Positions 6,268 through 56,097 of a stretch of DNA of 64,000 nucleotides are shown piece by piece (within the stretch, counting starts at the first letter, position 1; each line of letters starts with the position of its first letter). This stretch comes from Candidatus Omnitrophota bacterium (GTDB lineage Bacteria > Omnitrophota > Gorgyraeia > Zapsychrales > Zapsychraceae): contig JAJDCA010000071.1 of NCBI GenBank assembly GCA_029261055.1, positions 153,778-217,777 of the forward strand. The letters are read 5' to 3'. A program made the position numbers and the translations under genes. The notes under the pieces were generated by a model. That model had not been told where the DNA came from, searched no databases, and was given only the letters and a program-made list of their open reading frames with translations.

Positions 6268-9200
6268 ATGTTTATTTTACGCCAAAAACAACGGGTGCGT
6301 GTAGCGTACAGAGTGTTATCAGCCTTTATTATGGCCGTATTTTCCGTAACAACAATTATCCCAAGTGGTTATGCACAGAGTGTATCTTTGCCAACGGCAG
6401 GCACGGTTTTAAACCTTCCTGTGCCCGGCACGATGGTGGGCATAACCGAAGGATTTACCCCGGCTCTGATTAAAGGTATTACCATTTATCCGGACAATCC
6501 TTTGATGTTTGATTTTATTGTGGATAGCGGGCATTCTGAGATGACTGGAGAGGCCCTTAAAGATGAGGCGTCTGATATGATTAAATATTTCCTGGCGGCC
6601 TTAACCATTCCGGAAAAGGATTTATGGGTCAACTTGAGCCCGTATGAGGCGGACCGTATTATTCCTGATGGTTTGGGCGACACCTCTATGGGTCGCGATA
6701 TGTTGTCGCAAGATTATATGCTTAAACAACTTACGTCTTCGATGATGTATCCGGAGGATGAGCTGGGTGGTGAATTTTGGGAGCGTGTGTATGATAAGGC
6801 TTATGAAAAATTCGGCAACACCGACATTCCAATGAATACTTTTAACAAAATTTGGATTGTGCCACAGGCGGCTGAAGTCTATGAGCGTGAAAAAAGTGCT
6901 TTTGTAGTGGGCAGCCGTTTAAAGGTTATGTTGGAAGAAGACTATGTCGCTTTGCAGAAAAATTTAGGGGTGGAACAATATGGATTAGATGCGATGCCCA
7001 AGAGCGAGGCCAAGGTTGTCAGTGGTGTCACCTCAGAGGTAGTGCGTGAAGTCTTGATTCCTGAAATCGAACGCGAAATAAACGAAGGCGCCAACTTTGC
7101 CAAACTCCGCCAGATCTACCATGCCATGATTTTGTCTACGTGGTACAAAAAGAGGCTGCAGGAAAGTTTATTGGGACAGGTGTATGTAGATCAAAATAAA
7201 ACCATGGGCGTCGATACTCAGGATAAGCAGATCAACCAAAAAATTTACGATCAATATGTCGAATCTTTTAAAAAAGGCGTGTACAACTACATTAAAGAAG
7301 ATTACAACCCCGCCACCCAACAAATCACCCCCCGCAAATATTTCTCCGGCGGAATGAATCAATCCATGTTGAGCCGTATTTTTAAATTTATGGATAGGCC
7401 GACACGATTTGAGGTAGCACCGACAGGATTTGAGATATCCTACCAAACAAGTCTGATCGATGCCAATAAAGACAATGCGAGTATTGCCGTGCGTGTGAAA
7501 GAAGAGGTTGAATCGCAGGTTGATTTTGTGTTGATGAACTCAGAAAAAGAAATCGTTTCGGATGAGTCGATGCTTCAAGATTTTGATCCGTTTTTTTTGA
7601 TGAGTCTTATAACAAAATGGTCGCCTAAATATGAGGATGATTTAAAGGTATTCCACTTTATAAGGCATTTATATCTTGCCTGGATAGCGACGAAGGGGGA
7701 TCTTGCTAAGGCAACAATGACTTTAACGGAGAAGTCTTCATTTAAAAAATTTATTCAGGATAAAACTTTAGTCAATAAGGCTATTGAAGGGTCGCTTTAT
7801 GTGAATAATCCGAATATTAAAGGTTTGCTAAAAAACATCCGCACAGATATCACCAAGGCTGAAAATAAAATAAAGGCGGTAAGAAGAGAATTTGTTGGGG
7901 TGAATGAAAAAAGTACACAGGAAACGCAGGAGGCGGGGATGATCACGCTTCAGAATGTTCTTTTGAAAAATAAGAGTGCTGGTAAGACAGGGGAGGAGGA
8001 TGTTTTTGGAATAAGCATTAGTCGATTTCCAAGTGATCAATACGGTGAATTCGAGGCAAATTTTATCCAGAAAGATGGAAATACTGTGCAAATAATTGCA
8101 TGGCAAGAAAATAAAATTATTGACGTTGATTACAATCAGACAATGGAAAATTTTTACAAGGATCATAATTTATTTTATCGCAATAATAAAAAAGGGATTC
8201 CAACGGTAATTATTGAGGAAAAGTACGGAAAAAATAGAAAAATTTATAAAATTACACGTGGTGAAGGGCAAGAAGTAATGAAACAAAAGGATTTCAAAGA
8301 GCTTGTTTGGAATGATACGGCGATGGTTACAGATAAAGAAAGTCAGGCCGCTAAGAAGATATTGTTTGATTTTAGAGAAAGTGAAGCTAATAGGATGAAT
8401 ACTGCAAGAATACGAAGAGTCCATGTTCTTATGAATGCAATGAGAATTCGGTATGCCATAGGAAAAGATGAAGGAAGCAGTGTTGTTGGCATATTTTATG
8501 ATATGGAAAAAGCATTCTTGAAAAAGCAATCCAACTTCAAGCACTCAGATGCAATATTATTTTATCATACTGTTTTAGCGTTGGATCTACCAGACGAAGA
8601 ATACGTAACGCTAAAAAATAGTGTGATGCAAAGCTTGTTCCGTTTGGCAGAGAGAATAATGAAGGAAGAGGGGATCGTCATTAGTGTAAAGGAGATTTTA
8701 GCCCAGAAGGAAAAAATAAAAATGGCTATGATAAACGTTTTGCCGCATATGAAGCATTTTAAACATATGGAGTGGGGTGTCTATGATTACATTGATCGGG
8801 TTTTAAGCAGTTCAGATAAGAAATGGGATGAAGTATATTATTACAAGTACAAGGTGGCGATAAGTTTAGGGGAGAGCTATTCCAAGTTAGGGCATTCATT
8901 TGAAGGTGTTTTTGCGAAGATTAAGGGGAAGATAGCTTCTTTTCGGGCCAATGATTATGTAGATGTGTTTAGACAGTTGAATAAAAAATATACCGCGGAT
9001 GCATTGTATCAGGGGTTACCCTACACGGTAGATGGGGTGCGGATTTTTAAATCGAGATTAAAACAATACCGTCAGGATTTCAGATCGGCCATGGATACGC
9101 ACTATAAAAATATTTTTAAACTCGCACTTAAAGGTGAGCTGGAAGACAGTCCTTATGATATTTATGAAAATGAAGGGTCATCATTGCAAAATCAAGCAGG

Positions 9201-11340
9201 TGCGCAACTTTCTACAGAAGAATTAATTTATCTTAATGGCATTGCGGCAGGAAATGAATCGTTCTGGTTAGAAGCGTGGAGAATGCGCAATGCTTTTCAA
9301 AACAGTCCGGATGAGGTCGAAAGACTAATAATCCTTGAGGATGTTTTTAATGGCAAATCAATAGAGTTGGGGCTTTTAAAAATAGAAAAGGACGAAAAAA
9401 AGAAGGATAAGGAAAAAATAGCAATACTTGAAGTTGAAATGAAATCGATCGAAGAAACAATTGACCTTCTTTTAGAGAAAAAGCAAGAGATTTTAAGTGA
9501 AGTAGAGTATGTTGCGGAGGATGAGAATGAACAGAATCTAGCCATGTTAGTAGGGCTGAATCAGAAGATTGATCAATGGCTGCAGGGGCTTGAAAAAGAT
9601 GAAGACGCGGCGATGGCAGCGTTTAAATCATTGCTCCTTAAGATTAAACAGAAAATAACGGGGATATCTAATCGGAAAAAAATTGTTGTCGAGGATATTC
9701 CAGGTCTTGAGACGCTTGGGGTATCGATGGAAAATTTCCTAAATGCAGAAGGTATCCATACACCCAAAGATGCGGCTAAGTTGGGTAAGAGCATCAATGA
9801 GACGATAAACAGAGCGATTAAAGCATTTAGAAAGCGAGGTTCAGTGGATTTTACAGAAGATAATCTTTTCGCACTTCTTCTTAAGAAATATGATGAAAAT
9901 GTGCCCATTAATCGGGACGATTTAATGAAAGATTTAGAAAAATTTTCCCTAGGTGTGTATTCGAATTCTGTTGAGTTTGGCCTTATCAAATTACAATTAC
10001 AAATGAAAGTGTTTCTAAATCGGAACGTCGAGTGGTTTTTGAGTCCTATGCATCACTTTCCTCAAGCGGTGGCCAGGGCCAGTCAAGATAATAATATTGG
10101 GAGAACTATTGAAATGTTGGGCGAAATTTCGACGTATTTAGATGATGGAGTAACCTTTGCTGGAAACGCGGCGAGTAGGATATTCAAGAAGTATAAATAC
10201 ATAGATGAAAATAATTATGAAGAGATGGCCGATGAGTATGCACAAGTAGTGCGTTCTCTTCAAGATCACATCAAACAAATTGCAGATGAAGATCATGAGG
10301 AATTTCAAGAGATGATAGATATTTTAAATGCCAGTATTCAGCAACAGCTTGAAGATGTCTTGGGGGGTATTGCAGAGGCTAAAGTTCCTTATGTAGAAGA
10401 AAGAGGAGGTAAACGTTTTTCCATAGGTATTCCTTATGATTTGAGGGATAGCTTTGCTAAAAATGTAGTGAGTATCTATGAACGCCATACTGACTGGATG
10501 AACATTCTTAAAGTATCTTTAAAAGGGACCTATCGTGATTTGAAAATTAAAATAGATGAAGTGCGGGAGATGGAGAAAAAGTTCATAAATGATTATTTTA
10601 ATGTCAGGCCAAATAGCAATCTTTTGAAGGAAGAAGAAAAAGAAATATATATCCCAAGAGTAGAAGAGTTTTATGAGAAGTTAGCTGAATTTGAAGGAGT
10701 AAAAATGCCATCTAAGGAGAAGCGTTGGATTACGGGGTGGATTTTAAAATTAGAGGGCATATATAAAGGATTAGGAGGGGCAGACAAGGTTATTGATCGC
10801 GTGAATGTAAAGACAATAGGCGACGGCATGGACACCTGGGATGATTTGCCGGATTTTGATCAAATAACGGCAGAATTAGATGACTCCATGATGGCCACGA
10901 CTCTGGCAGAATTGCTAGAGAAATTGAAAATGTCAAAAGATGAAGTGGATAAAAAGGCTGTTACAAAACAAATATTTAGACTGGTGGACGAAGATTTAGA
11001 CGAGCCTTTAAAAGGTAGATTTCTTAAACAATTCACTGAATTAAATGGTGAAACGGATAAAGCGAGCATAACTCCCATTGGTGGTATTAATTTTGATTCG
11101 GCGATGTTGAATTTGCAGATTAAGCGCGATGGGGCTGGGGTGCCCTTGCCTTTGATTGAGCAGGATATGGATTTGGGTATGCGTGTCCAAGGATTTTTGC
11201 CGATTATTATTAATGCTACTCCAGTAAGCCTGCCGCAGTTGCTTGGTTTTTCCGATACTGTACCGCAAGAGGCCGATTCTTCGACTATGAGTCTGTCTTA
11301 TCACATCCTCACCCGCGACCCGCAGGATATTATCATTTAA
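6268..11340 (+). CDS. Giant secreted modular protein, paralog 1 (conserved N- and C-domains, variable core), function unknown
   Basis: 1690 aa; signal peptide ending GYA-QS; N-domain up to RKYFSGG and C-domain GGINFDSAMLNLQIKRDG align by eye with 52327-56097. Confidence 0.85.
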   Translation: MFILRQKQRVRVAYRVLSAFIMAVFSVTTIIPSGYAQSVSLPTAGTVLNLPVPGTMVGITEGFTPALIKGITIYPDNPLMFDFIVDSGHSEMTGEALKDEASDMIKYFLAALTIPEKDLWVNLSPYEADRIIPDGLGDTSMGRDMLSQDYMLKQLTSSMMYPEDELGGEFWERVYDKAYEKFGNTDIPMNTFNKIWIVPQAAEVYEREKSAFVVGSRLKVMLEEDYVALQKNLGVEQYGLDAMPKSEAKVVSGVTSEVVREVLIPEIEREINEGANFAKLRQIYHAMILSTWYKKRLQESLLGQVYVDQNKTMGVDTQDKQINQKIYDQYVESFKKGVYNYIKEDYNPATQQITPRKYFSGGMNQSMLSRIFKFMDRPTRFEVAPTGFEISYQTSLIDANKDNASIAVRVKEEVESQVDFVLMNSEKEIVSDESMLQDFDPFFLMSLITKWSPKYEDDLKVFHFIRHLYLAWIATKGDLAKATMTLTEKSSFKKFIQDKTLVNKAIEGSLYVNNPNIKGLLKNIRTDITKAENKIKAVRREFVGVNEKSTQETQEAGMITLQNVLLKNKSAGKTGEEDVFGISISRFPSDQYGEFEANFIQKDGNTVQIIAWQENKIIDVDYNQTMENFYKDHNLFYRNNKKGIPTVIIEEKYGKNRKIYKITRGEGQEVMKQKDFKELVWNDTAMVTDKESQAAKKILFDFRESEANRMNTARIRRVHVLMNAMRIRYAIGKDEGSSVVGIFYDMEKAFLKKQSNFKHSDAILFYHTVLALDLPDEEYVTLKNSVMQSLFRLAERIMKEEGIVISVKEILAQKEKIKMAMINVLPHMKHFKHMEWGVYDYIDRVLSSSDKKWDEVYYYKYKVAISLGESYSKLGHSFEGVFAKIKGKIASFRANDYVDVFRQLNKKYTADALYQGLPYTVDGVRIFKSRLKQYRQDFRSAMDTHYKNIFKLALKGELEDSPYDIYENEGSSLQNQAGAQLSTEELIYLNGIAAGNESFWLEAWRMRNAFQNSPDEVERLIILEDVFNGKSIELGLLKIEKDEKKKDKEKIAILEVEMKSIEETIDLLLEKKQEILSEVEYVAEDENEQNLAMLVGLNQKIDQWLQGLEKDEDAAMAAFKSLLLKIKQKITGISNRKKIVVEDIPGLETLGVSMENFLNAEGIHTPKDAAKLGKSINETINRAIKAFRKRGSVDFTEDNLFALLLKKYDENVPINRDDLMKDLEKFSLGVYSNSVEFGLIKLQLQMKVFLNRNVEWFLSPMHHFPQAVARASQDNNIGRTIEMLGEISTYLDDGVTFAGNAASRIFKKYKYIDENNYEEMADEYAQVVRSLQDHIKQIADEDHEEFQEMIDILNASIQQQLEDVLGGIAEAKVPYVEERGGKRFSIGIPYDLRDSFAKNVVSIYERHTDWMNILKVSLKGTYRDLKIKIDEVREMEKKFINDYFNVRPNSNLLKEEEKEIYIPRVEEFYEKLAEFEGVKMPSKEKRWITGWILKLEGIYKGLGGADKVIDRVNVKTIGDGMDTWDDLPDFDQITAELDDSMMATTLAELLEKLKMSKDEVDKKAVTKQIFRLVDEDLDEPLKGRFLKQFTELNGETDKASITPIGGINFDSAMLNLQIKRDGAGVPLPLIEQDMDLGMRVQGFLPIIINATPVSLPQLLGFSDTVPQEADSSTMSLSYHILTRDPQDIII

Positions 11341-11408
11341 CCTTCTGATGTTACGATTTTAGAATAAAATAACCTTGTATTATAGTCACAATATTGTATA
11401 ATTAACCT

Positions 11409-12737
11409 ATGAAAAGATTCATAGAAGAAGAATTAATAAAGTGGAAAGATGATTCAGATCGAAAGCCGCTTATTCTTTCAGGGGCTCGGCAAGTTGGCAA
11501 GTCTTATGTCATAGAACGCAACTTTTCTTCCAATTTTGATCAGGTTTTAAGTATCAACTTTGAAAAACAGCCTGAGTTTAAGGATTGTTTTGAGTCAGAC
11601 TTATCACCGGGAAAAATTATTCGTAAAATTGAGGCTTTAAGCCAGAAAAGAGTAGATATTGGTCGAACCCTAGTTTTTTTGGATGAGATTCAAATTTGCC
11701 CAAAAGCCATAACGGCTTTGCGGTATTTTTATGAAGAACTTCCTGCCTTACACCTTATCGCCGCGGGATCGCTGCTTGAGTTTACAATGGAAAGTATTTC
11801 TGTGCCTGTGGGGAGGGTAACTTACCGTCATTTAACTCCGTTATCATTTGAAGAATTTCTTTATAATTCCGGGAATGAAATTTTATTAGAAGAAATATCA
11901 CGGCATAATTTTGATGCCCCGTTTGATAAGGTGGTGGCTCAAAAAGCGGAAGTTCTTCTTAAAGAATATATGGCGATTGGAGGGATGCCGCAGGTTGTAG
12001 ATCGGTATATTCAGAATCAAGATTATTTAAAATGTCAGGAAATTTTGTCAGATTTGCTGGAAACTTATACTAACGATTTCCCTAAATATGGTCGAAGGGA
12101 TGCGGATTTGAAATATATTGATTTAGTTTTCGCGAGAGCTGCGCATCTCGTAGGAAAGCAGTTTAAATATGTTCATATTACGCGGGATATTCAATCAAAA
12201 TACATCAAACAAGGCGTTGACCTTCTTGTTAAGGCTGGCGTTTTGTCCTTGATTTACAAAACATATGGTTCTCCTCTGGGGGCTAATTATAATCCGCATC
12301 GTTTTAAGCTGCTATTTCTTGACATTGGTCTCATGCAAAGGGCATGTGGTTTGAACATATCTAGATGGGTAAGTGATGGGCATGATTTGATTCACGCAGG
12401 GGTGATCGCTGAACAGTTTGTAGGGCAGGAAATTGCAGCACATGCACATTTTAAAAAAGGAAGACTGTATTATTGGGAGAGAGACAAAAGGGGGAGTTCT
12501 GCGGAACTTGATTATCTTGTGGAAATGGCTGGGCGCATTCTACCTGTTGAGGTTAAATCAGGAACCATCGCCAGGTTAAAGAGTTTGCAGAATTTTCTGA
12601 AAGCGCATCCTGATATTCCTGAAGGAATTAAAGTATCTCTCGACAATTCTGGAAAGAAACAAAATATTCGTTCAATCCCGCTGTACGCCTTTGGGAGCTG
12701 GTTAAAACGGCAGGATTATACTAAATCTATTAAATAA
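11409..12737 (+). CDS. AAA+ ATPase with DUF4143 domain
   Basis: GARQVGKS, FLDEIQ, AAGSLL, GGMP, 'YYWER...AELDY...PVEVKSG'. Confidence 0.9.
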   Translation: MKRFIEEELIKWKDDSDRKPLILSGARQVGKSYVIERNFSSNFDQVLSINFEKQPEFKDCFESDLSPGKIIRKIEALSQKRVDIGRTLVFLDEIQICPKAITALRYFYEELPALHLIAAGSLLEFTMESISVPVGRVTYRHLTPLSFEEFLYNSGNEILLEEISRHNFDAPFDKVVAQKAEVLLKEYMAIGGMPQVVDRYIQNQDYLKCQEILSDLLETYTNDFPKYGRRDADLKYIDLVFARAAHLVGKQFKYVHITRDIQSKYIKQGVDLLVKAGVLSLIYKTYGSPLGANYNPHRFKLLFLDIGLMQRACGLNISRWVSDGHDLIHAGVIAEQFVGQEIAAHAHFKKGRLYYWERDKRGSSAELDYLVEMAGRILPVEVKSGTIARLKSLQNFLKAHPDIPEGIKVSLDNSGKKQNIRSIPLYAFGSWLKRQDYTKSIK

Positions 12738-12769
12738 TTTTTTTAGTTTTTCGATACGAAGCATTCACG

Positions 12770-15602: not shown

Positions 15603-16698
15603 GTGATAGATGATATTAAAAAACAGATTAATCATATTGAGGGAAAATTAAAGCACCTCAGGGGGTTTCTTTGACTTAGCTGAGAAGCAAAAAATAGTCG
15701 AATCTATTCAATCTCAAATGAATGAGGCTGATTTTTGGGAGAATACGGCTAAGGCAAATAAGTTGATGAAGGAAATGAAGTATTTAAAAGGATGTGTAGA
15801 GCCCTTTGAAGAGAGTGTTAAAAAAGTTACCGACCTTAAAGAATTAGCTGAATTATCCGCAGATGATGAAGAACTTTTAACACAGATTCAGGAAGAAGTT
15901 ACTGTTCTTGAAAAGGATGTTGATGTCACAGAGCTGCAAAGTATTTTGGCGGGCCCTTTTGATCGTAATAATGCCATTCTCAGTATTAATGCAGGTGCGG
16001 GTGGAACAGAATCATGTGATTGGTCAAATATGCTTTTGCGGATGTATACCCGTTGGGCGGATGAGCGTAAAGCACAGGTTAAAGTATTAGATATTTTGCC
16101 AGGTGAAGAGGCTGGTGTTAAGAACGTCACGCTGAGCATAGAAGGCGATATGGTGTATGGTTATTTGAAGGGGGAAAGAGGTGTTCATCGGCTAGTGCGG
16201 ATATCACCTTTTGATTCCAATAAAAGACGACATACTTCTTTTGCTTCTGTTGATGTTATTCCTGAAATAGAGGATGATATTGAAATCGAAATTAATCCTG
16301 ATGATTTACGGATTGATATTTTTCGTTCTTCCGGTCCTGGTGGTCAAAGTGTAAATACCACGGATTCAGCGGTGAGAATTACACATATTCCGACAGGGAT
16401 TTCTGTTCAAAGTCAGAATGAACGATCGCAGTTGCAAAATAAACAGAATGCAATGAAGGTTCTTCGAGCACGACTTTACGAATTGAAACTTAAAGCTCAG
16501 GAAGAGAAGATTTCAAAAGAATATGCAGAAAAGCAAAAAATCGAATGGGGAAGTCAAATTCGTTCGTATGTAATGCATCCCTATTCGATGGTCAAGGATC
16601 ACCGGACCGACGCAGAGACAGGTAATGTCGCTAAAGTTATGGACGGGGGTATAGATTTGTTTATAGAGGCTTATTTAAAGAAAAAGGATAAAGGATAA
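15603..16698 (+). CDS. prfB: Peptide chain release factor 2 with programmed +1 frameshift
   Basis: GTG 15603 frame runs to AGGGGG-TTT-CTT-TGA-C (15660-15675); the +1 frame continues into the ORF carrying SPF and GGQ. Confidence 0.95.
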
Positions 16699-42123: not shown

Positions 42124-42136
42124 GTGATAAGAAGGG

Positions 42137-43102: not shown

Positions 43103-43122
43103 ATCTGGAAAGTATCATGCTC

Positions 43123-43403
43123 GACACGAAATCGCTTTTAAGAGATTGCTGATAAATTATTTGCAATCTCCTAAGCAAAGATTAGCACATTCGGCTCAGA
43201 GGAGATTTCGTTCTGCTCGATCTCCAATTCGCCGCATGCACTAATCTTTGCTTTGAACGATTACAACTTTTAAGTTGTAAATTTTTGGTCAACCCGTCTT
43301 ATCAAGAGGTTGTGTTAAAGCCTGCAAGCGAATTGGACGCGACAAAAATACTACGTCCTCTGAGCTGAAAGGTTTTAACACAATTTCCAATAGACGGGTT
43401 GAC
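43123..43403. repeat. Structured repeat element, long copy (two large hairpins with a shared core in inverted orientation)
   Basis: Homologous to 58596-58743; core GCGAATTGG...CCTCTGAGC at 43328-43365 (+) and 43194-43232 (-). Confidence 0.85.
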
Positions 43404-43436
43404 TTGAAAGTGTCTTTTAATTTGGATAGTAGTAAA

Positions 43437-44369
43437 ATGAAAAATAAAATTATTAACAATGTGATTGAGCTTATCGGCGGGACGCCGTTGATACGGTTGA
43501 ATAAGATCGTTGCGCAAGAGAACTGTGCTGAGATATTAGGGAAGTTGGAGTCGTTTAATCCTGGGGGGAGTGTCAAAGATCGGCCTTGTTTGGCTATGAT
43601 TGAGAATGCTGAACGGAAAGGGATTTTGAAAAAAGGGGCAACGGTTATTGAGCCGACTACCGGGAATACCGGTATTGGGTTGGCTATGATTTGTGCGGTT
43701 AAAGATTATCGTTGTATTTTGACTATGCCTGAAGATTTAAGTTTGGAACGCATTTATCTTTTGCGTTCTTATGGGGCTGAAGTTATTTTGACGCCGGCCA
43801 AAAAAGGTATTCAAGGGGCTATAAAAAGGGCGGATGAGTTGAATCATAAAATAGCGGGCAGTTTTATGCCGCGGCAATTTAAAAGTCCTGAGAATCCTGA
43901 AGCCCATCGGCAGACAACAGCAAAAGAAATTTTAGAGGCTGTTGATGGAAAGATAGATGCCTTTGTCGCAAGCGTCGGTACAGGAGGGACAATAACTGGA
44001 ATCGGAGAAGTCTTGAAAAAAGAGTTTAATTCGATTAGAATTGTGGCCGTCGAACCCAAGAAAAGTGCTGTTTTATCTGGTCGACCGGCAGGAGCCCATA
44101 GAATTCAAGGTATCGGTGCGGGGTTTGTCCCAAAAACATTAAACCGCAATATTATTGATGAAATTATTTTAGTAGACGATCAAGAAGCCTTTGATATGTC
44201 ACGGCGTTTAGGGCACCAAGAAGGCCTATGTGTTGGGATTTCTTCAGGGGCCAATGTACTGGCAGCCTTGAAGGTAGCAAAAGATCTTGGTCCGGGTAAA
44301 CGTGTCGTAACCGTATTATGCGATACTGGTGAACGTTATTTTTCAATGGAACAATATTTTGAAGCGTAA
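43437..44369 (+). CDS. cysK: Cysteine synthase A
   Basis: 'KLESFNPGGSVKDR', 'TTGNTG', 'GTGGT', 'HRIQGIGAGF', 'DTGERY'. Confidence 0.95.
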   Translation: MKNKIINNVIELIGGTPLIRLNKIVAQENCAEILGKLESFNPGGSVKDRPCLAMIENAERKGILKKGATVIEPTTGNTGIGLAMICAVKDYRCILTMPEDLSLERIYLLRSYGAEVILTPAKKGIQGAIKRADELNHKIAGSFMPRQFKSPENPEAHRQTTAKEILEAVDGKIDAFVASVGTGGTITGIGEVLKKEFNSIRIVAVEPKKSAVLSGRPAGAHRIQGIGAGFVPKTLNRNIIDEIILVDDQEAFDMSRRLGHQEGLCVGISSGANVLAALKVAKDLGPGKRVVTVLCDTGERYFSMEQYFEA

Positions 44370-44378
44370 GGAATTATC

Positions 44379-45104
44379 ATGAATTATCAAGATAAAATAA
44401 AAGAGTATTTAGAAAAAACTAAAGATTATAGCCCGGAAGAAATTATCAAATTTGCCTATGAAGAGTTTGGGGCAAGGGTAAAATTTGCTTCGAGTCTGGG
44501 AGAAGAAGATCAAGTCATAGCCGATATGATTTCTCGTGAAGCGCCACAAATTGAAATATTCACATTAGATACAGGTCGGCTTTTTCAAGAGACGTACGAA
44601 TTGTTAGCTAAAACACAGAAAAGATATTCTACAAATTTAAAGGTCTATTATCCCGACACAAAGGCTGTTGAAGAAATGGTACAGCAAAAAGGGATTAATT
44701 TGTTTTATGAAAGTGTTGAAAATAGAAAACAATGCTGTCATGTACGAAAGATTGAACCTTTGCAAAGGGCTTTGAAAGATACGGATGCCTGGATATGTGG
44801 ATTGCGTCGGGCGCAATCCATTACGCGTACGGCCGTCGCAACATTTGAGTGGGACGAAGGTAATCAGAAAGTTAAAATTAATCCTTTGGCGGCTTGGAGT
44901 ATGCAACAGTTGCAAGAGTATATCAGCCAAAATAGTGTTGATGTTAATCCTTTGCATCAGCAAGGTTTTGTTAGTATCGGTTGTGCGAGTTGTACACGTG
45001 CACTTAAAGATGGAGAAGATATCCGCGCTGGTCGGTGGTGGTGGGAAGAACCGGAACAGAAAGAGTGTGGATTGCATGGCCGTTTAAAAGATGCAAAGAA
45101 ATAA
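44379..45104 (+). CDS. cysH: APS reductase (Fe-S-containing CysH type)
   Basis: 'LDTG', CC...CxxC ('QCCHVRK', 'SIGCASCT'), 'RAGRW', 'ECGLH'. Confidence 0.92.
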   Translation: MNYQDKIKEYLEKTKDYSPEEIIKFAYEEFGARVKFASSLGEEDQVIADMISREAPQIEIFTLDTGRLFQETYELLAKTQKRYSTNLKVYYPDTKAVEEMVQQKGINLFYESVENRKQCCHVRKIEPLQRALKDTDAWICGLRRAQSITRTAVATFEWDEGNQKVKINPLAAWSMQQLQEYISQNSVDVNPLHQQGFVSIGCASCTRALKDGEDIRAGRWWWEEPEQKECGLHGRLKDAKK

Positions 45105-45111
45105 GATGTAA

Positions 45112-45131
45112 CCTGCCTGCCGGCAGGCAGG
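45112..45131. repeat. Perfect 20-bp palindrome CCTGCCTGCCGGCAGGCAGG
   Basis: Exact self-complementary sequence in the cysH-cysD spacer. Confidence 0.95.
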
Positions 45132-45158
45132 GAAGCAGAGAAAAGGAATTAAAAAAAT

Positions 45159-46058
45159 ATGATAAAACAAAAAACTATGTCCAAATTAGATGTCATTGAA
45201 TCGCAGAGTATTTATATTTTGCGTGAAGCTTATCGAGAATTTAAAAATTTGGCTATGCTTTGGTCAATCGGTAAGGATAGTACCGTGTTGTTGTGGTTGG
45301 CCCGTAAGGCTTTTTTTGGGCATGTGCCTTTGCCTTTAGTGCATATTGATACACATTACAAAATTCCGGAAATGATAGAATATCGAGACAAACTCGCCCG
45401 TAAATGGAAATTGAATATGGTTTACGGCCAAAATACAAAAGCACTTGAATCGAAACAAACATTTCCTGATGGTGCTATTGATCGGATTGCCTGCTGTAAA
45501 TCATTAAAATCTGAAGCCCTTAAACATACATTGGCTGGAGATTGGCCAAGATACCGGATGAATCATCAAACAGGGAAGTATGATTTGGATACAAACACAG
45601 AACCGTATACCGGTGTGATTGTCGGTGTGCGTGCTGACGAAGAAGGTAGCCGTTCCAAAGAGAGGTATTTTTCCCCTCGCGATCGCAACAATGATTGGGA
45701 TGTTGGTGACCAACCGCCGGAATTATGGAATCAATTTAAAACAGATTTTGCGCCAGGAACCCATTTGCGTATTCATCCTTTATTAGACTGGACAGAATTG
45801 AATATTTGGGAATACATCGAACGGGAAAATATTCCGATTACTAAACTTTATTTTGATCAAGGCGAAGGCAAACGATACCGTTCGTTAGGATGTTATCCTT
45901 GTACAACCCCTGTAGAATCTCCGGCTAAAAATGTACAAGACATCGTTGAAGAACTACGTGGCGGAAAATTCGCCAACATCGCCGAACGCTCGGGACGTGC
46001 ACAAGACAAAGACGACGGCGGGGGTCTTGAGACGCTTCGCCTCGATGGATACATGTAA
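45159..46058 (+). CDS. cysD: Sulfate adenylyltransferase subunit 2
   Basis: 'SIGKDS', '[12 protein letters not shown]', 'HPLLDWTE', 'RSLGC'. Confidence 0.95.
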
Positions 46059-46068
46059 AGGTAAATAA

Positions 46069-47889
46069 ATGAATAATACAACAAGAGAACAGATGAATGT
46101 CGTGATTGTCGGACACGTTGATCACGGGAAGAGTACTTTGATCGGGCGATTGCTGGCCGATACGAAATCTTTACCGGATGGTAAGTTAGAGGCTGTGAAG
46201 GCGAATTGTAAACGGAATGCGAAGCCTTTTGAATATGCTTTTCTTTTAGATGCCCTTAAAGATGAGCAGTCGCAGGGGATCACGATTGATACGGCCCGCT
46301 GTTTCTTTAAATCTGACAAAAGAGATTACATTATTATTGATGCGCCGGGGCACATTGAATTTCTCAAGAATATGATTACCGGAGCTGCACGAGCTGAAGC
46401 CGCTGTTTTGGTGATTGATGCCAAGGAAGGTATTCGTGAAAATTCTAAACGGCATGGTTACATGATGTCATTTTTAGGGATTAAGAATGTGACGGTGTGT
46501 GTGAATAAAATGGATTTGGTGGATTACAGTGAAAAAGTTTACGAAGATATTAAAGTGGAGTATACAGAATTCTTGAAAGAAATTAATCTTAAGCCCAAGA
46601 ATTTTATTCCGATTAGTTCACGTGAAGGGGATAATATGGTGACCCTTTCGGATAAAATGCCTTGGTATAAAGAGTTATCAGTTTTAGAAGCATTAGATCA
46701 TTTTTCTAAAGCGGCTCCAGATTATGCGCGTGATTTACGTTTTCCCATTCAAGATATTTATAAATTTACAGCAGAGAAGGATGACCGACGAATTATGGCA
46801 GGACGTATTGAATCCGGGACTGTGTGTGAAGGGGATGAAGTTATATTTTTGCCGTCTAAAAAAACATCCCGAATTACAACGATAGAAGGTTTTAATCTGG
46901 CGAAACAAACCGAAGCTTTTGCAGGGCAGAGCACCGGGATGACATTAGATACACAAATTTACATTCGTCCCGGCGAAATTATGTGCAAAGCCAATGAAAA
47001 ACAGCCGCATGTAAGTTCAAAATTTAAAGGCAATGTTTTTTGGATGAGCAAAGAACCCCTGGTTAAAGGCAAGAATTATAAATTGAAGCTGGCGACGCAG
47101 CAGGTTCCGGTGGTTCTGTCGGATATTCTTAGTGTTCTGGATGCTTCAGAGTTGTCTTCGATCAAAAATAAACCGCAAGTTGATCGCCATGATGTTGCAG
47201 AATGTATTTTGGAAACTTTAAAACCTATTGCTTTTGATGAAGTGAATAATATTTCCGAAACAGGGCGGTTCGTGATTGTCGATAATTATGAAATTGTCGG
47301 TGGAGGTATTGTTTTAGCACCGGTATTTGATCAGGAAACGTCTTTAAATCAGCATATTAAAGAGCGCGAGTTCCATTGGGAGCGCAGTGACATTACGCCG
47401 GGTAAACGGGCTGTAAAATATCAGCATAAGTCTGCTTTTGTGGTCGTTACCGGTCAGGCGGATACAGGGAAAAAAGACATTGCCAAGATGTTGGAAGAAG
47501 AGTTGTTCAAGTTAGGAAAATTTACCTATTTCCTTGGTATTGCTAATGAGTCGTTGGCAAGCACCTCAAACTCTAATGATAAGACGTTAAAAAGAGTTCA
47601 GCACGTTCGACAGTTAGGGGAAATGGCGCATACGTTTACTGATGCTGGGTTGATATTGATTACAAGTATTTCCGATATTGATGATTACGATATTGAAACT
47701 TTAAAATCATTGAATAGACCTAACAAAACAATTGTTGTTAATGTCGGGGAAAATCGATTTTCTGAAGGTTACATCGATTTGACCCTTCCGAAAACAGACT
47801 TCGATGCTGAAGTACTTAAAAATACCGTGACACAAATTATTCAGTTATTAATGAAATCTATTGTTTTAGATCCGGAGTATTCAATTTAA
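46069..47889 (+). CDS. cysN: Sulfate adenylyltransferase subunit 1 with degenerate APS-kinase-like C-domain
   Basis: GHVDHGKST, 'QGITID', DAPGH, NKMD; C-domain P-loop altered to GQADTGKK. Confidence 0.9.
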
Positions 47890-47967: not shown

Positions 47968-47981
47968 TATTTCATATCAAA

Positions 47982-50587: not shown

Positions 50588-50592
50588 AGGGG

Positions 50593-51762
50593 TTACAAAT
50601 CATTCAAGAGGTGGATATCAGAAGGGTCTTTTATGATAAGTTTTTTGGTGGCTTTTATGCGGTTGAAAAGGTTTAATTGCTTTTTAGTAAGTTCTCGATA
50701 ATATTTTGATTCAATTAAGGTTTTATTTTGTGTATAGAAATCAATTTCTATGCCGTCCTCGTATATGTAAGATGGGCTTGCCTGACGGATTTTTAAGAAA
50801 ATATAGTTTTCAAAAAGGCTCCCTTTGTCTCGAAACCCTGTAAACAAAGTGCGTATGCCAAGGTCCGGGGCGTAGCCTTTTTTAGGGGATAGAAGTGTTT
50901 CATTAGTTTTACCATGGCGTGGGATAAGGTAAATTAAGTAGGTTTCGGCAAACATCGAAAGATAGCGTTTAGCTGTATCGGGCGCAATAGAGAGTATTTT
51001 AGCCATTTTATTGATACTTATTTGTTTGCCGGCACGTTCCATAAGGAGCATGAAATAGTCTTTTATCATTTGAGGATTCTTAATGTTATGATAGGCAATA
51101 ATATCTTTATAAATAATGTCATCGACCAGGGTTTTTAAATATTCACGATCTGGGTGGAGAACATATTCAGGGATACCACCGGTTTTCATATAATCTTCAA
51201 AATACGGTTCTTTAAGATAGTTTTCTTTTTGTTTGATGGTGATGTTACGAAATTGGCAAAATTCTTCAAAATCAAGTGGGGCGATTTCTAAAATACGTTC
51301 TCTTCCGGTTAAAAGTGCTTTTTTATCTTTGAGTAAAGAAGTGCTTGAGGAAGACGTATAAATTTTTACGTTTTGATTGTCATAAAGGTTTTTTAGTTGT
51401 AAATGTGGATTTTTTTTGTAGGTAATTTCATCAAGAAAAAGATAGATTTTTTTGTTAAGAGGCAGTTTGAAAATTTTGCGATATTCTGAAATGATATCAA
51501 GGATGGATTTATTTATTAAGGTATAATCATCCAGGCTCACATAAAAAATGTGTTTTGGGTTAGCTCCTTTATGAATAAGCCGTTGGATAAAAAGTTTCAA
51601 TAGAGTCGTTTTTCCAACCCTTCGTAAGCCGGTAAGGATAACGATTGATTTTGTGTTGAGAAGATTTTCCATGGAAGAAAGTATGCGCGGACGATCTTTA
51701 ATTGCTTCTAGTGAAATGGGCTCTTCCCACCATGGATTGTATTGGTAGAGTGTTTCTTTCAT
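50593..51762 (-). CDS. AAA+ ATPase with DUF4143 domain
   Basis: Start MKETLYQYNPWW; GLRRVGKT, FLDEI, GGIPE, 'EIDF...IESKY'. Confidence 0.88.
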   Translation of the reverse strand: MKETLYQYNPWWEEPISLEAIKDRPRILSSMENLLNTKSIVILTGLRRVGKTTLLKLFIQRLIHKGANPKHIFYVSLDDYTLINKSILDIISEYRKIFKLPLNKKIYLFLDEITYKKNPHLQLKNLYDNQNVKIYTSSSSTSLLKDKKALLTGRERILEIAPLDFEEFCQFRNITIKQKENYLKEPYFEDYMKTGGIPEYVLHPDREYLKTLVDDIIYKDIIAYHNIKNPQMIKDYFMLLMERAGKQISINKMAKILSIAPDTAKRYLSMFAETYLIYLIPRHGKTNETLLSPKKGYAPDLGIRTLFTGFRDKGSLFENYIFLKIRQASPSYIYEDGIEIDFYTQNKTLIESKYYRELTKKQLNLFNRIKATKKLIIKDPSDIHLLNDL

Positions 51763-52036
51763 GCCTAAAGTATACGTTATAATCGTATATTTATCAAGGA
51801 AATTATACGATAATGATAAAATAATAATGTAATTGTTAAATACCATGAAATAAGAAATTGACAATTTTGAATATCATGTCCTTAAGATATGTAAGTATTT
51901 AGCATTCTGAGTTGTCGAAGAGCGTTAAAAGCATGAAATTATTTCTAGCAGGACATTGAAAGCCCTGCGCATTCCATGCTGACACCGGGGAATTTTCTGA
52001 GTGTTTTCTTAAAAAAATAAGTATTTTAAAAGAAAT

Positions 52037-52263
52037 GTATCATGTTTTAAATCAATAGGTTATGCAATCTACAAATTTCTTCATTTTTATAATATATTAT
52101 AACATTATTTATTTCAATATGTTATGAATCATCTGGCTTCATTTCTCTCCACTTGACACTCGTCCAAAATATGTTATCTTTCCAGTATATTAATAAGAAA
52201 ACGTTTTATTCCACATAATTACACCAATAATTCCTACAGCAGGTAGGTCTCGCCACGGATTGG
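52037..52263 (+). promoter_or_regulatory. Conserved upstream region of giant gene 2
   Basis: 27-bp boxes 52037-52063 and 52099-52125, TTGACA 52153, TATCTT 52175, CCAATAAT...CTCGCCACGGATTGG 52224-52263. Confidence 0.65.
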
Positions 52264-52326
52264 TTAAATTTATAAAAATTAATTAGACATTGAACTACAA
52301 TGTTTTTTCATAATCCGGAGGAAATA

Positions 52327-55300
52327 ATGAACATTTACATAAAAAAACAACGTTTTTGTCTGTTTTACAGGGCTTTATCCGCCTTTATTGCCGTGGCATT
52401 CCTAACCACCAGCATTGTGCCGCAAGGGTTTGGGCTGAGCGCAGTCGAAGCCTATGCGCAGAGTATGTCTGTGCCAGCACCAATAGTGTTAAATTTGCCT
52501 GTACCGGGTACAATGGTCGGCATGACCGAAGTATTTACACCGGCAATGGTCAAGGGCATCACTATTCATCCGGATAATCCGCTTTTATTTGATTTTCTCA
52601 TCAATAAAGGGGATACCCATCTTAAAGGCGACGAATTAAAGACGGAAGCCAATAAATTGATTAAATATTTTTTGGCGGGCCTAACCGTGCCGGAGAAAGA
52701 AATGTGGGTTAACCTCAGTCCGTACGAAGCAGATAGAATTATCCCTGAAGGTTTTGGCGATACCGAAATGGGCCGGGATTTGCTTGCGCAAGATTACATT
52801 TTAAAACAGCTCACCTCATCATTGATGTATCCAGAAGATGAATTAGGTGAGGCCTTTTGGCAACGTGTTTATGAAAAATCTTATGAAAAATTTGGTCATA
52901 CAGATATTCCGATGAACACATTTAACAAAATTTGGATCGTGCCGGAAAACGCATCTGTGTATGAACACGAAGAAACTTCGACCGTGTATTTAGTGGATAG
53001 TCATTTGAAGGTGATGCTTGAAGAAGATTATGTTGCTGCGCAACATAATAGTGACGCGTCGCTCGTGGCTCGTGACTCGAAAAAACATTCGGATATCAAG
53101 CGCGCCACGCGTCACGCCATGCCTGCCGGCAGGCAGGAGCGACTAGCGACGAACCTTATCCGAGAGATTCTTATCCCCGAAATCGAACGCGAAGTCAACC
53201 AAGGCAAAACGTTCGCCAATCTGCGCCAGATTTATCATTCCGTTATTCTGGCCACGTGGTACAAACGAAAATTTGCTGTAGGGAACGAGCACCTGCCTGC
53301 CGGTAGGCAAGGTGCCCAATCCTTATTAGGACACGTGTATGTAGATCAAAACAAAACCAAAGGTGTAGATACGCAGGATAAAGACATTAACCAAAAGATT
53401 TATAATCAGTACGTCGAATCTTTCAAGAAAGGCGTTTACGATTACATCAAAGAAGATTATGATCCCGCGACTCGACAGATCATCCCGCGGAAATATTTCT
53501 CAGGAGGAGCGGAGCTTTTTCTGGCCAAAATAAATCACGCTATGCTCACTCCAGAAAGGCGTGTAGAGATAACAAGCGAGGGTAAGAATACAGATCGTGT
53601 TGTAGTGGAATTGAATGAAATCGGATTAAAAGGTACTGACTATGCACAAGTAGTTACAGATTCAGGAGAATATTTACAGCGGGCAGGTGATATTAAAAGT
53701 GCGGAAAATGTAGATGCAGTAATTAGTCCTATTGTCGATAATGCGATGCAAACATTTCCAGGCTTAATGAATAAATTTTCAAAGGATGGGTATGTTTTAC
53801 ATGCATTGGAACGAGGAGCTGATTTAACGCCTTGGGATGGAGAGGTTGTTATGGAATTGCTTGGTCAAATGACTGAAGGGCGTGAGTATGCGAATGGAGT
53901 TATTTATGATTCGGGTCATTATAGAAGCAGAAGTTTTACTTATTTTAACATGCCATTTTTGAGTGAATTGAGTGAAGATATTATTAGGTTTTCCGTTGAT
54001 TCATCTCATAAAAATCCAATCGAAGTAGTAGATACATCTGAAAATTTTGAGTTTTTTCTTGGTGAAAATAAAGAAACACAAAAAATTGAATTTTTAGCTT
54101 GGGAATGGAAACGACGCGATGTGAGCTATGAAGAACATAACATTTCCTATAAAGGTGAAAATGGGAAATATGATGTTCTTAAAATAAGCCCTAAGCAATA
54201 TGGGAATGTTTTGAGTAAAGGATTTGGAGTTGAAGAAAAACCTTCTAGTAATCAGATTGCCTATTTAGGGGCTACACAACTAAAAGGGAAAGAGTTTAAG
54301 GAATGGAATTTTTCTAATATTGAAGAAACTTCTCAGGGAAAGTGGGGGCATGGCTCTTCATATAGTATGGATTATCCTGAGTTTAAGAAAGACTTTATTC
54401 ATTACACGCAATATAGAAATGATGATGTAGATTTAATGACACACGTTTATTCAATTCCAGTAATTATGAAAGATAATCTTTCTTATAATATGGGTAAAAA
54501 TAAAAATAGCGAAGGTTTTGAAATTCGTATTGGCAGAAATAAAAATAGAGAAATTGAGTTTATGTTGTTAACAGCTCCACAAAAAATTATTTTAAGGTAT
54601 AAAAATAAGCTAGGAATGCCGAAAAGTAAAGTGATAACGAAAGCTGAACGTGATCAAATTTTAAAAGATCCGACAATAATTAATACAATAATATTTAATA
54701 GTAAGAAAATGTCCAAGGAATGGGTTGTTGATGAGGCAAAGGAAAAAGAATTTTCAGAAAACACTAAAACACGTATTCTAAATAATCAGGTAATAGTAGA
54801 TGAGCATACTAAGGTATTAAAAAATAAGAGAGTTGTGGAGATTAAAGAAAATGGAAAGAAGCCCTCCAACTTAATGCCGGAGAATAAAAAAGAACATGAA
54901 AAAGTTATGCGTATTAATAAAATAATAGAAGAGATGAAGTCGGTTGTTAAGAACCATTCTTTTCGTGACCTTTATTTTGGTCCAATTCTAGGACGAAAAA
55001 ATATTAAATCTTTTCGTGATTATTTAATAGCAGGGAATATACAAGACATTCAGGCGATTGTTTCTGGTATGAATCCACAGAAGGCAAAAGATAAGGGAGA
55101 AAAAAAGATTTTTAGAAAATATTATGAAAGTCCAAAATTTTCTAATTTAGCAACACAAATCAAATCAAAAGCAAAAGCTTTAATAGATAAGCTTCCTCAA
55201 ATCAAGGGAAAAAATCTAGAAGCCGAGATAAATTCTTTTCGTGAAGATGTTTTAAATGAAATTGAAAATCTTGATGCGGCGATGATTGGAAATGGTCAAG

Positions 55301-56097
55301 ATAATACCACCGTGTCGGCAGAAATAAAGCCAACTATCGTTATGATAGAAGATAAGGACGAACCTAATTCTAGCGAGCCTGATAAAGCTATGATGGAGAA
55401 AAAGACAATTTTATTAGTTGAGGATGATGAAGATATAAGAAAAGGATTGAAGGATTTCTTTGAGTCGAGAGATTACAATGTTATTGCGATGGAAAATGGT
55501 AAAGAGGCTTTAACACTTATAATAAAGAGAAAGGAAATGAAAGAGCCTCTTGATCTTGTTATAAGTGACTTAGATATGCCAGAGATGGATGGGATGGAGT
55601 TGCTAGAAAATGCAGAAAAAATATGGCCCGAATTACTTTTTATTATGCAATCAGGGAGAATGCCTTCAAATATTTCTGGTTTGCTTGAGAGGAAATCTAA
55701 TGTACATAAGGCTTTGGATAAAAGATTTGCTTTAGAGAAATATGAATCTGCGTTAAATGATTTGTGGGGGGATGTTGATTCAGCAATGATAAGGGCGGAG
55801 GAAGTGACGGGGGTAAATAAAGTTGGTGGTATCAATCTTGACCCGGCCATGCTGGATTTGCAGATCAAGCGTGATGGCAACGGTGTACCATTGCCGGTGA
55901 GTGAACAGGATTTTTCGATGATGCATATTGAAGGGGTTTTGCCTGTTATTATCAATGTAACGCCAGTTAATATTCCTATGCTGCTAGGTTTTGCAAATGA
56001 CGTACTCCCTGTTGCTGGCTGTCCATCGGATGATGAAATGATTGATTGCGATCGCGACTTGATTTCCATCAAACCGGAAGAGGAGGTTTTTTTGTAG
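52327..56097 (+). CDS. Giant secreted modular protein, paralog 2 (includes a receiver-domain module)
   Basis: GGAGG before ATG 52327; signal peptide ending AYA-QS; N- and C-domains shared with 6268-11340; REC domain at ~55393-55770. Confidence 0.85.
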   Translation: MNIYIKKQRFCLFYRALSAFIAVAFLTTSIVPQGFGLSAVEAYAQSMSVPAPIVLNLPVPGTMVGMTEVFTPAMVKGITIHPDNPLLFDFLINKGDTHLKGDELKTEANKLIKYFLAGLTVPEKEMWVNLSPYEADRIIPEGFGDTEMGRDLLAQDYILKQLTSSLMYPEDELGEAFWQRVYEKSYEKFGHTDIPMNTFNKIWIVPENASVYEHEETSTVYLVDSHLKVMLEEDYVAAQHNSDASLVARDSKKHSDIKRATRHAMPAGRQERLATNLIREILIPEIEREVNQGKTFANLRQIYHSVILATWYKRKFAVGNEHLPAGRQGAQSLLGHVYVDQNKTKGVDTQDKDINQKIYNQYVESFKKGVYDYIKEDYDPATRQIIPRKYFSGGAELFLAKINHAMLTPERRVEITSEGKNTDRVVVELNEIGLKGTDYAQVVTDSGEYLQRAGDIKSAENVDAVISPIVDNAMQTFPGLMNKFSKDGYVLHALERGADLTPWDGEVVMELLGQMTEGREYANGVIYDSGHYRSRSFTYFNMPFLSELSEDIIRFSVDSSHKNPIEVVDTSENFEFFLGENKETQKIEFLAWEWKRRDVSYEEHNISYKGENGKYDVLKISPKQYGNVLSKGFGVEEKPSSNQIAYLGATQLKGKEFKEWNFSNIEETSQGKWGHGSSYSMDYPEFKKDFIHYTQYRNDDVDLMTHVYSIPVIMKDNLSYNMGKNKNSEGFEIRIGRNKNREIEFMLLTAPQKIILRYKNKLGMPKSKVITKAERDQILKDPTIINTIIFNSKKMSKEWVVDEAKEKEFSENTKTRILNNQVIVDEHTKVLKNKRVVEIKENGKKPSNLMPENKKEHEKVMRINKIIEEMKSVVKNHSFRDLYFGPILGRKNIKSFRDYLIAGNIQDIQAIVSGMNPQKAKDKGEKKIFRKYYESPKFSNLATQIKSKAKALIDKLPQIKGKNLEAEINSFREDVLNEIENLDAAMIGNGQDNTTVSAEIKPTIVMIEDKDEPNSSEPDKAMMEKKTILLVEDDEDIRKGLKDFFESRDYNVIAMENGKEALTLIIKRKEMKEPLDLVISDLDMPEMDGMELLENAEKIWPELLFIMQSGRMPSNISGLLERKSNVHKALDKRFALEKYESALNDLWGDVDSAMIRAEEVTGVNKVGGINLDPAMLDLQIKRDGNGVPLPVSEQDFSMMHIEGVLPVIINVTPVNIPMLLGFANDVLPVAGCPSDDEMIDCDRDLISIKPEEEVFL
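53051..53150. repeat. In-frame heptamer-periodic hairpin with nested 20-bp palindrome
   Basis: GTGACGCGT...ACGCGTCAC arms; CATGCCTGCCGGCAGGCAGG at 53118-53137 encodes MPAGRQ. Confidence 0.75.
53278..53326. repeat. In-frame GTAG-type REP-like hairpin with nested palindrome
   Basis: GTAGGGAACGAGCAC-CTGCCTGCCGGTAGGCAAG-GTGCCCAATCCTTAT, encodes VGNEHLPAGRQGAQSL. Confidence 0.7.

Follow-up and report, generated by a model that had tools for sequence, protein, structure and literature searches.

Multi-copy modular proteins of Omnitrophota carry a genome-specific four-residue motif at module borders

Introduction

A 64,000-nucleotide stretch of a Candidatus Omnitrophota genome (assembly GCA_029261055.1, contig JAJDCA010000071.1, positions 153,778 to 217,777; hereafter the window) contains two paralogous genes, gene 1 and gene 2, whose products share their two ends and differ in the core between them. 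A preliminary description of the window noted that both cores are punctuated by a short motif, (D/N)-x-(A/S)-M, and proposed exported polyproteins whose conserved ends deliver or process swappable cargo domains, the motif being a cleavage or docking site. The locus thereby raises the question of what this motif marks and what reads it. Here the motif is found to mark module borders, outside folded domains, in a large protein family, and the factor that reads it likely acts in trans. The source genome of the window is labelled G000; other G-numbers, DAOWGP and SBBO denote other genomes compared. Seymour 2023 (PMC10066038) describes Omnitrophota as widespread ultra-small bacteria with a presumed predatory or parasitic way of life, and it is for the question of their action on hosts that the family is of interest.

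Results

A large paralogous family with conserved ends

Both window genes were found to be intact. Their proteins could be aligned only at the N-domain (60%, 413 columns) and at the C-end (48%, 90 columns), the next-best match between them having an E-value of 0.083, in agreement with the earlier statement that the cores are largely unrelated. The cores are not colinear. The RKYFSGG and GGIN landmarks that bound the cores lie where they had been reported (Table 1).

Profiles of both ends identified 91 open reading frames (ORFs) in G000, a family membership that the preliminary description had overlooked. Both ends were present in 58 of these, the N-domain alone in 20 and the C-tail alone in 13, many of them lying at contig edges, and the family in G000 was put at roughly 70 proteins overall, 53 of them full-length. 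A typical member is 700–3,200 amino acids (aa) long, mostly soluble and multi-copy. Related loci numbered 66, with taxon labels as recorded of Omnitrophota/Omnitrophica (43), Planctomycetales (13), unnamed bacteria (9) and Desulfuromonadaceae (1). The N-domain was detected by single-protein and profile search in 15 of 151 sampled genomes of the phylum, including all five other genomes of the same order. In total the family comprises 8,309 clusters at 50% identity, and its annotated members are titled "hypothetical" or after a cargo domain.

The motif is a protein-level signal

Motif enrichment was evaluated against shuffled cores, with 20,000 shuffles in the per-gene test. D-x-[AS]-M occurred four times in the gene 1 core against 0.33 expected (P 1.5e-4), four times in the gene 2 core against 0.21 (P 5e-5) and 159 times in 53 cores (56,884 aa) against 11.1, a 14-fold excess. 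In the inner cores, defined as the core minus its first 90 and last 45 residues, the count was 59 vs 9.2. DxAM (102 vs 5.4) and DxSM (57 vs 5.8) were both enriched in G000, whereas NxAM was weak (10 vs 4.6) and NxSM was not enriched (6 vs 5.1). Accordingly, the D-forms of the proposed motif stand in G000 and the N-forms are weak there, although NxAM is enriched in G129 (16 vs 1.4). ExAM, DxAL, DxAI, DxAV, DxGM and DxTM were at chance level or lower in G000 cores, DxAM ranked top in a de novo motif search, and 38 members from other genomes carried DxAM 57 times against 5.6.

All 13 motifs listed earlier, together with the weaker DNAS at 7471 and DKAS at 11056, were found at the reported positions and with the reported codons. 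They do not amount to 13 independent core motifs, since DSAM 11095 and DPAM 55840 both lie within the conserved tail (GGIN+5). Similarly, the 68-codon spacing of the first two motifs is present in both window genes and is not a conserved feature, as the first-to-last spacing ranged from 6 to 91 in 25 paralogs with at least two motifs in the first 130 core residues and was 68 only in the two window genes.

In the motif region every synonymous codon is present and no consensus is seen in the flanking DNA, while Shine-Dalgarno-like words stand ahead of 16 of the 206 ATGs that belong to motifs and of 88 of the 1,534 other core ATGs. The motif is therefore a protein-level signal, as had been argued from its varied codons, and no ribosome-binding site was found ahead of its Met. 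Two candidates were rejected on the same grounds, namely the motif Met as an internal translation start, as Shine-Dalgarno words are not enriched, and the motif as a DNA repeat, as a flanking consensus is absent. A disorder profile was uninformative, as composition around the motif differs only within about 10 residues.

Motifs lie at module borders

All 79 cores of at least 120 aa from G000 (80 pieces) were scanned with Pfam, which gave hits in 31 pieces. Taking the best stretch per Pfam family and merging overlapping repeat hits by hand left 45 stretches, and only 1 of 84 motifs fell inside them against 13.1 expected. A motif was found within 30 residues of 5 of 25 complete domain starts (1.5 at random). 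Comparable results were obtained from 308 internal shared-module alignments among 361 cores, in which three dialect patterns were counted and which are not independent of one another: 71 began just after a motif (16.9 at random), 58 stopped just before one (18.3), and 80 motifs fell inside the alignments (167 at random). One module occupies core residues 1738–2113 in one paralog and 423–784 in a second, and both copies begin at a motif. The motif closes the cargo in 36 of 53 full-length members, and the N-linker carries one in 44 of 53.

Twenty cargo modules matched a stand-alone G000 protein at its N-terminus, and in 10 of them a motif lay within 13 residues of the first residue of the homolog. 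In four of these, namely phosphoglycerate kinase, enolase, PPDK and a transaldolase recognized by eye, the distance was at most two residues; nine of the 20 had none. Enzyme names beyond the Pfam hits were read from the sequence by eye. The two comparisons that the preliminary description had put forward, of motif frequency with background and of motif position with domain boundaries, thus both came out in its favor.

Signal-peptide-like segments follow the motif

Uncharged hydrophobic segments were called by a rule of our own rather than by a signal-peptide predictor. Such a segment was found within 40 residues after 37 of 142 motifs (10.3 expected). Beyond core residue 100 it followed 20 of 99 motifs against 5.7 overall and 6 of 22 against 1.7 in G000, with no excess ahead of motifs (8 of 99 vs 7.5). 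When 40 further proteins were examined as a fresh set, a segment followed 8 of 17 motifs against 2.0 expected, six of the eight cases being in one protein. Twin-arginine or lipobox-like patterns stand right after several motifs (DRAM-MTRRNFL, DAAM-ITRRNFV, SSPV-SRRNFLK...ESC), and four of nine RRxF hits were at most six residues from a motif. Signal peptides act at a free N-terminus; as the signal-like segments occur only downstream of the motif, cutting is favored over docking. It is possible that the segments are instead retained as anchors or relics. No internal segment of this kind was found in either window gene. Another protein, P0169, consists of six tandem cassettes that each open with DxAM followed by a signal-peptide-like segment.

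Motif dialects track the genome

Members without DxAM were enriched in SSP[VI] (SSP 37 vs 3.1). DxAM was dominant in G000, G129 (38 vs 1.5) and G139 (53 vs 1.6), SSP in DAOWGP, SBBO, G143 and G095, and SS[AS][ILV] in G079 (36 vs 3.6) and G057. G141, G091 and G131 gave no clear motif among the patterns tried, and it is possible that G141 and G091 have a different dialect or lack one. In a tree built from 200 N-domains, labels could be given to 123 members, a label requiring at least two motifs of one type. The dialect was uniform in 16 of 17 genomes with at least two labelled members, and labels changed 11 times on the tree. For instance, a DAOWGP member with SSP is sister to a G000 member with DxAM (support 0.918), while DAOWGP members are up to 1.12 apart. 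The dialect consequently tracks the genome and not the N-domain tree, so that the reader is likely one factor per genome or host and not a protein's own N-domain. This does not support the proposal that the conserved ends do the processing, and neither does the N-domain itself, which has no invariant Cys or His and matched no known fold. Judged from these features and from recurrence of the dialect in an unrelated giant protein, the motif reader likely acts in trans.

The dialect recurs in four of nine giant proteins

The sole C39 peptidase domain of G000, which is intact, was found at the start of a 44,961-aa ORF (C73:4339-139224). This ORF adjoins Tad-like genes, has 16 cysteines and is punctuated by DxAM between aa 8804 and 10021. 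Exactly one C39 domain was present in 8 of 10 other genomes tested, and its Cys, His and Asp were kept in 9 of 9 giants. Giants carrying the dialect of their own genome were those of G129 (DxAM 11 vs 2.8), G139 (9 vs 2.3), G095 (SSP 18 vs 0.6) and G000 (9 vs 4.0, P 0.02), and in all four the motifs were concentrated in one 1,500-aa window (P 0.002–0.004). The giants and the family cores have some cargo modules in common. The family N and C profiles gave no match when searched against the giant pieces, and the RSEVR motif was absent from the nine giants examined. Presence of the same dialect in an unrelated giant in four of nine genomes points to one reader in trans. The C39 domain is only a weak candidate for this reader, because it is followed in the giant by a double-glycine-like site of its own and no C39 domain was found in G143 and G135.

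The conserved ends are predicted to form one unit

No match to either conserved end was found in Pfam or NCBIfam, and an ESM Atlas search returned unnamed clusters only, the top one being commonest in Omnitrophota. The N-domain of roughly 320 aa was modelled by AlphaFold2 as a confident alpha/beta domain (predicted local distance difference test, pLDDT, 78.7; predicted template modelling score, pTM, 0.81). Foldseek gave nothing at E<=0.001 and VIA-align a best Z of 3.4 for this model, which shows no match rather than a new fold. A natural 603-aa relative, P0120, was modelled with a confident N-domain and tail (pTM 0.68) and cargo without a useful alignment; the best structural Z of this full-length model was 4.5, and its three SSP motifs all lie in segments with pLDDT <50. 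A weak and uncontrolled structural alignment (Z 4.0, root-mean-square deviation 4.1, 93 residues) covers model residues 56–583, which indirectly suggests that N-domain and tail form one compact unit. The prediction is thus that N-domain and C-tail pack together in a fold without a match, while the cargo loops out. In some C-tails (e.g. C72:7631-13669 in G000; window 56020-56050) there are two paired cysteines. They often bracket an acidic loop, C-x-D-D-D-x-D-G-x-C, reminiscent of a calcium-binding hairpin.

Cargo is of cytoplasmic type and nearly free of cysteine

Cargo types include phosphoglycerate kinase, uridine kinase, protein kinase, PPDK, DnaJ and receiver domains, all of cytoplasmic type, and stand-alone homologs of the cargo enzymes are present in G000, mostly at 25–50% identity. 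The receiver domain of gene 2, which lies between DKAM and DSAM, had not been noticed before. Cysteine makes up 0.04% of the cores against 1.3% of cytoplasmic-like and 0.71% of secreted-like proteins; 65 of 79 cores have none, and the few that remain are mostly in close pairs or a radical-SAM motif. Over aligned residues, two cysteines were counted in 1,817 for cargo and 11 in 1,709 for stand-alone homologs.

No homologs were found for gene 1 residues 432–1596 in a search limited to proteins of 929–2,958 aa and the best 7,999 candidates, or for residues 1116–1537 in a separate search. The gene 1 cargo and the non-receiver cargo of gene 2 were not found in 40 relatives, and a search of the window cargo in PDB gave one weak match (E 0.003).

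Intact N-termini of the family resemble Sec signals by eye. G000 contains eight secretin matches, in loci resembling type II secretion system (T2SS), type IV pilus and Tad clusters, and four S8 protease matches.

Proposed mechanism and alternatives

Sequence comparison supports the earlier proposal of exported modular polyproteins with swappable cargo. The reading that we prefer, and consider about evenly balanced between right and wrong, is that these Sec-exported polyproteins are transferred to a host or prey cell, and that a single trans-acting protease, of either bacterial or host origin, cuts them at the genome-specific motif. Sec export would carry the polyprotein to the periplasm, where the N- and C-terminal unit could serve as a tag read by a secretin-type (Tad, T2SS or type IV pilus) machine. 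The cargo would cross unfolded into the host or prey, hence the absence of cysteines. Cleavage near the motif, either between A and M or after the fourth residue, would then free enzymes that depend on ATP, signalling domains, and modules that bring Sec, Tat or lipoprotein signals of their own, to work in the recipient. A broader form of this proposal, which we advance tentatively and would not bet on, is a proteolytic punctuation code that operates across the whole genome in some Omnitrophota. Carriers exported by Sec, dozens of them and built on a new scaffold of N- and C-terminal parts, would join the giant protein in bringing a second proteome into the host. This proteome would be free of cysteine and comprise hundreds of enzymes, regulators and signal-bearing proteins. 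In the host one protease would cut a lineage-specific four-residue word and the recipient Sec, Tat and lipoprotein pathways would sort the products. The word would shift in concert across genes when the protease or host changes.

Several observations weigh against the preferred reading. Cleavage, the protease, the secretion route and the destination are all points that we infer. Many borders have no motif, given that only the above 5 of 25 complete domain starts have one nearby, and motif-free segments reach 2,731 aa. In inner cores the depletion inside Pfam stretches is modest (1 of 31 motifs vs 5.3, P 0.023), and P-values throughout overstate independence because genomes and paralogs are related. 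The fresh-set excess of hydrophobic segments comes largely from one protein. Too few motifs for a label were found in 77 of 200 members. Transmembrane-like stretches, which could stop transfer, are present in 10 of the 79 G000 cores, neither window core being among them. Five of nine giants showed no clear enrichment, four of these being pieces of 1,146–8,708 aa, and the G091 giant (39,944 of 44,145 aa examined) and its two family members had no motif. The double-glycine-like site of the giants and the C39 domain not found in G143 and G135 count here as well.

An alternative in which export and cutting take place as proposed and the pieces stay in the producer periplasm, at the surface or in the prey contact zone, with no injection, appears unlikely to us, if the most plausible of those considered. 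It would fit the Sec-type signal on all intact N-termini, the several secreted proteases in G000 (the S8 matches and a trypsin-like/PDZ protein in the window) and the location of most giant-protein domains outside the cell that is given by West-Roberts et al. 2023 (10.1101/2023.11.21.568195). Kinase, PPDK, DnaJ and receiver cargo, however, requires ATP or cytoplasmic partners, and internal Sec, Tat and lipobox signals would be useless outside a cytoplasm. Such signals also bear on the next, likewise unlikely, explanation, in which the motif stays uncut and signals docking, pausing or unfolding to a secretion chaperone or ATPase, so that the protein is delivered whole with its internal hydrophobic segments as membrane anchors. 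The trans-acting dialect and the border position are accounted for equally well by this, at least two motifs often stand in the short N-linker where one cut would suffice, and no protease was identified, which also counts against the preferred reading. Free N-termini would better explain why twin-arginine and lipobox signals stand intact right behind the motif, and why its fourth residue coincides with the native start position in some enzymes.

Cutting in the producer cytoplasm, with the enzymes acting there and the internal signals using the producer Sec and Tat pathways, would be the simplest account of cytoplasmic-type cargo and internal signals and would need no injection machine. We nevertheless think it improbable, more so than docking, in view of the cysteine loss from cores and relative to stand-alone homologs, the presence of those homologs in G000 and the C-tail being predicted to pack on an exported N-domain. 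The motif could finally be a cassette-assembly scar without a protein role, i.e. a short DNA recombination site or captured start codon. Among the Ala codons of the motif GCC/GCG are indeed preferred (89 of 130 vs 38% in cores), as are TCN among its Ser codons, and the motif Met is sometimes at a native start. The Ala bias is that of N-domain codon use, however, all synonymous codons occur with no flanking consensus or Shine-Dalgarno signal, motifs also end cargo and fill the N-linker, and SSP dialects have no Met. This explanation is already disfavored and has very little probability left.

Comparison with known systems

Polymorphic toxins (CDI, Rhs, Maf) combine a conserved delivery part with a variable payload and occur in many copies. 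The family differs in that its payload is central and multiple and its C-end is conserved. Among ORFs of at least 90 aa, no recurrent small neighbour that might be an immunity gene was seen at 66 loci, nor was a recurrent protease or secretion candidate. Neighbour clusters recurring in three to five genomes were rejected as partner genes as they reflect orthologous loci such as groES/groEL. A family gene adjoins groES/groEL in six genomes (G000:C47:28346-37663; L017, L019, L021, L023, L034), downstream in the five relatives and on the opposite side in G000, so that its position is partly conserved. Type IX cargo consists of unrelated proteins with a Sec signal and a short conserved C-terminal domain. 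The present family has in addition a 320-aa N-domain and internal delimiters, its tail has no Pfam or NCBIfam match and, to our knowledge, type IX secretion is not known from Omnitrophota. In viral polyproteins and in phage cargo proteins punctuated by motifs, separate proteins are joined by a short recurring motif and served by one trans-acting protease, whereas the present family is cellular and exported, extends over dozens of genes and has dialects that differ from genome to genome.

MARTX toxins are, as set out in PMC6315884, likewise single polypeptides with conserved ends and variable central modules; MARTX effectors are cut free between domains after delivery, and the toxins have repeat-containing arms, type I secretion and a built-in cysteine protease domain activated by inositol hexakisphosphate (InsP6). 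In contrast, the N and C parts of the family are non-repetitive domains, Sec-type N-termini are seen family-wide by eye in place of type I secretion, and there are some 70 paralogs per genome with a motif in common with an unrelated protein. No Pfam match to a C80/CPD cysteine protease domain was found in either window protein or the 80 core pieces; a genome-wide PF11713 search was blank, as was its control.

The Omnitrophota giants ("Archaeovorins") resemble the family in being from the same phylum, cysteine-poor, marked by a genome-specific motif in one region and headed by a shared promoter signature. Their cargo overlaps (sugar-metabolism enzymes, receiver domains, HEAT and WD repeats), divergent metabolic and signalling domains being joined in one chain in both. 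Unlike the window proteins of 1,256 and 1,690 aa, the giants exceed 10,000 aa, are multi-membrane and single-copy and have an N-terminal C39 domain. Cleavage of giants is proposed by West-Roberts et al. 2023, where the cleavage points are stated to be unknown, and the main text of Nielsen & Lui 2026 (10.64898/2026.06.07.730766) contains no discussion of cleavage, motifs, proteolysis or linkers. No description of the family, and no characterization under another function, was found in the papers searched; preprint supplements, deposited catalogues and Kizina 2022 could mention it. The family is hence undescribed in those papers, and the mechanism given above is a proposal.

As the motif stands at borders, is genome-specific and is common to the giant, it supplies exact sites for proteomics, and it lets thousands of unannotated proteins be divided into modules. 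The family further points to an undescribed delivery scaffold, its 91 ORFs occupying 8.6% of the G000 genome.

Layout and surroundings of the window genes

Table 1. Features of the two family genes and their upstream regions in the window.
Feature	Position	Strand	Remarks
Gene 1	6268..11340	+	1690 aa, zero cysteine; with two AAA_14/DUF4143 genes an insert between murJ and uvrC
Gene 1 Sec-type signal peptide	6268..6375	+	aa 1-36, GYA|Q; judged by eye; paralog N-termini alike
Gene 1 conserved N-domain, ends RKYFSGG	6376..7353	+	matched no known fold
NQSM, weak variant, gene 1	7357..7368	+	NxSM not enriched genome-wide
DESM motif, N-linker end, gene 1	7561..7572	+	sequence check
Gene 1 cargo	7573..11055	+	about 4 modules, roughly 250, 410, 425 and 60 aa; homolog searches without match
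DTAM motif, gene 1	8314..8325	+	sequence check
NLAM, weaker variant, gene 1	9535..9546	+	sequence check, genome-wide counts
DAAM motif, gene 1	9604..9615	+	sequence check
DDSM motif, gene 1	10879..10890	+	sequence check
Gene 1 conserved C-tail (GGIN...), includes DSAM 11095	11080..11340	+	profile of C-end
Gene 2	52327..56097	+	1256 aa (1265 from ATG 52300); cysteines confined to signal peptide and tail
Gene 2 Sec-type signal peptide	52327..52458	+	aa 1-44, AYA|Q; judged by eye
Gene 2 conserved N-domain	52459..53508	+	sequence, alignment
NHAM, weaker variant, gene 2	53533..53544	+	sequence check, genome-wide counts
DNAM motif, gene 2	53737..53748	+	opens 510-aa cargo block without homologs found; sequence check
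DAAM motif, gene 2	55273..55284	+	sequence check
DKAM motif, gene 2	55381..55392	+	9 residues ahead of receiver domain; sequence check
Gene 2 response-regulator receiver domain, motif-bracketed	55408..55743	+	PF00072, E 8.9e-16; acidic pocket, phospho-acceptor Asp
DSAM motif, gene 2	55777..55788	+	12 residues past receiver domain; sequence check
Gene 2 conserved C-tail, includes DPAM 55840	55825..56097	+	profile of C-end
Sigma-70-like promoter signature, gene 1 (TTGACA..AATATGTTAT)	6115..6139	+	putative function
Promoter signature, gene 2	52153..52177	+	putative function
11-base upstream element CGCCACGGATT, gene 1	6227..6237	+	conserved across family upstream regions
11-base upstream element, gene 2	52251..52261	+	as for gene 1

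The reading frame of gene 2 is open from the earlier ATG. The putative promoter signature gave 10 hits in the genome and precedes five family genes, including both window genes, and the giant gene. Of 75 regions upstream of family genes, 12 contain the 11-base element when one mismatch is allowed. Between promoter and 11-base element lies a palindromic element (CCTGCC...GGTAGACAGG-like) at about 6205–6225 and 52233–52248. Related palindromic elements occur in frame as "PAGRQ" within the gene 2 N-domain and the giant protein, consistent with a repetitive extragenic palindromic (REP)-like repeat. Elsewhere in G000, the family promoter and 11-base element stand immediately before an unrelated 286-aa gene (C6:106555-107415), which is itself closely followed by the family gene at C6:107429, as though it had been inserted between family promoter and gene.

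Gene 1 is a local insertion, a family gene being present between murJ and uvrC in none of 16 relatives. The window neighbours of the family genes are AAA_14/DUF4143 genes and a response regulator. Three AAA_14/DUF4143 ATPase genes are present (4827-5978, 11409-12737, 50593-51864), the first two flanking gene 1 and the third just upstream of gene 2. As the first two are absent from the murJ-uvrC gap in all 16 relatives, they mark insertion sites. The trypsin-like/PDZ (HtrA-like) protease gene is at 33368-34852. A cluster at 41698-47889 consisting of an Rrf2 regulator, a PHO4 transporter, a pyridoxal phosphate (PLP) enzyme, two PAPS-reductase-domain genes and a CysN/CysC-like fusion looks like an ordinary sulfate assimilation cluster. 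The release factor ORF at 15718-16698 starts within the PCRF domain, as for prfB with a programmed frameshift.

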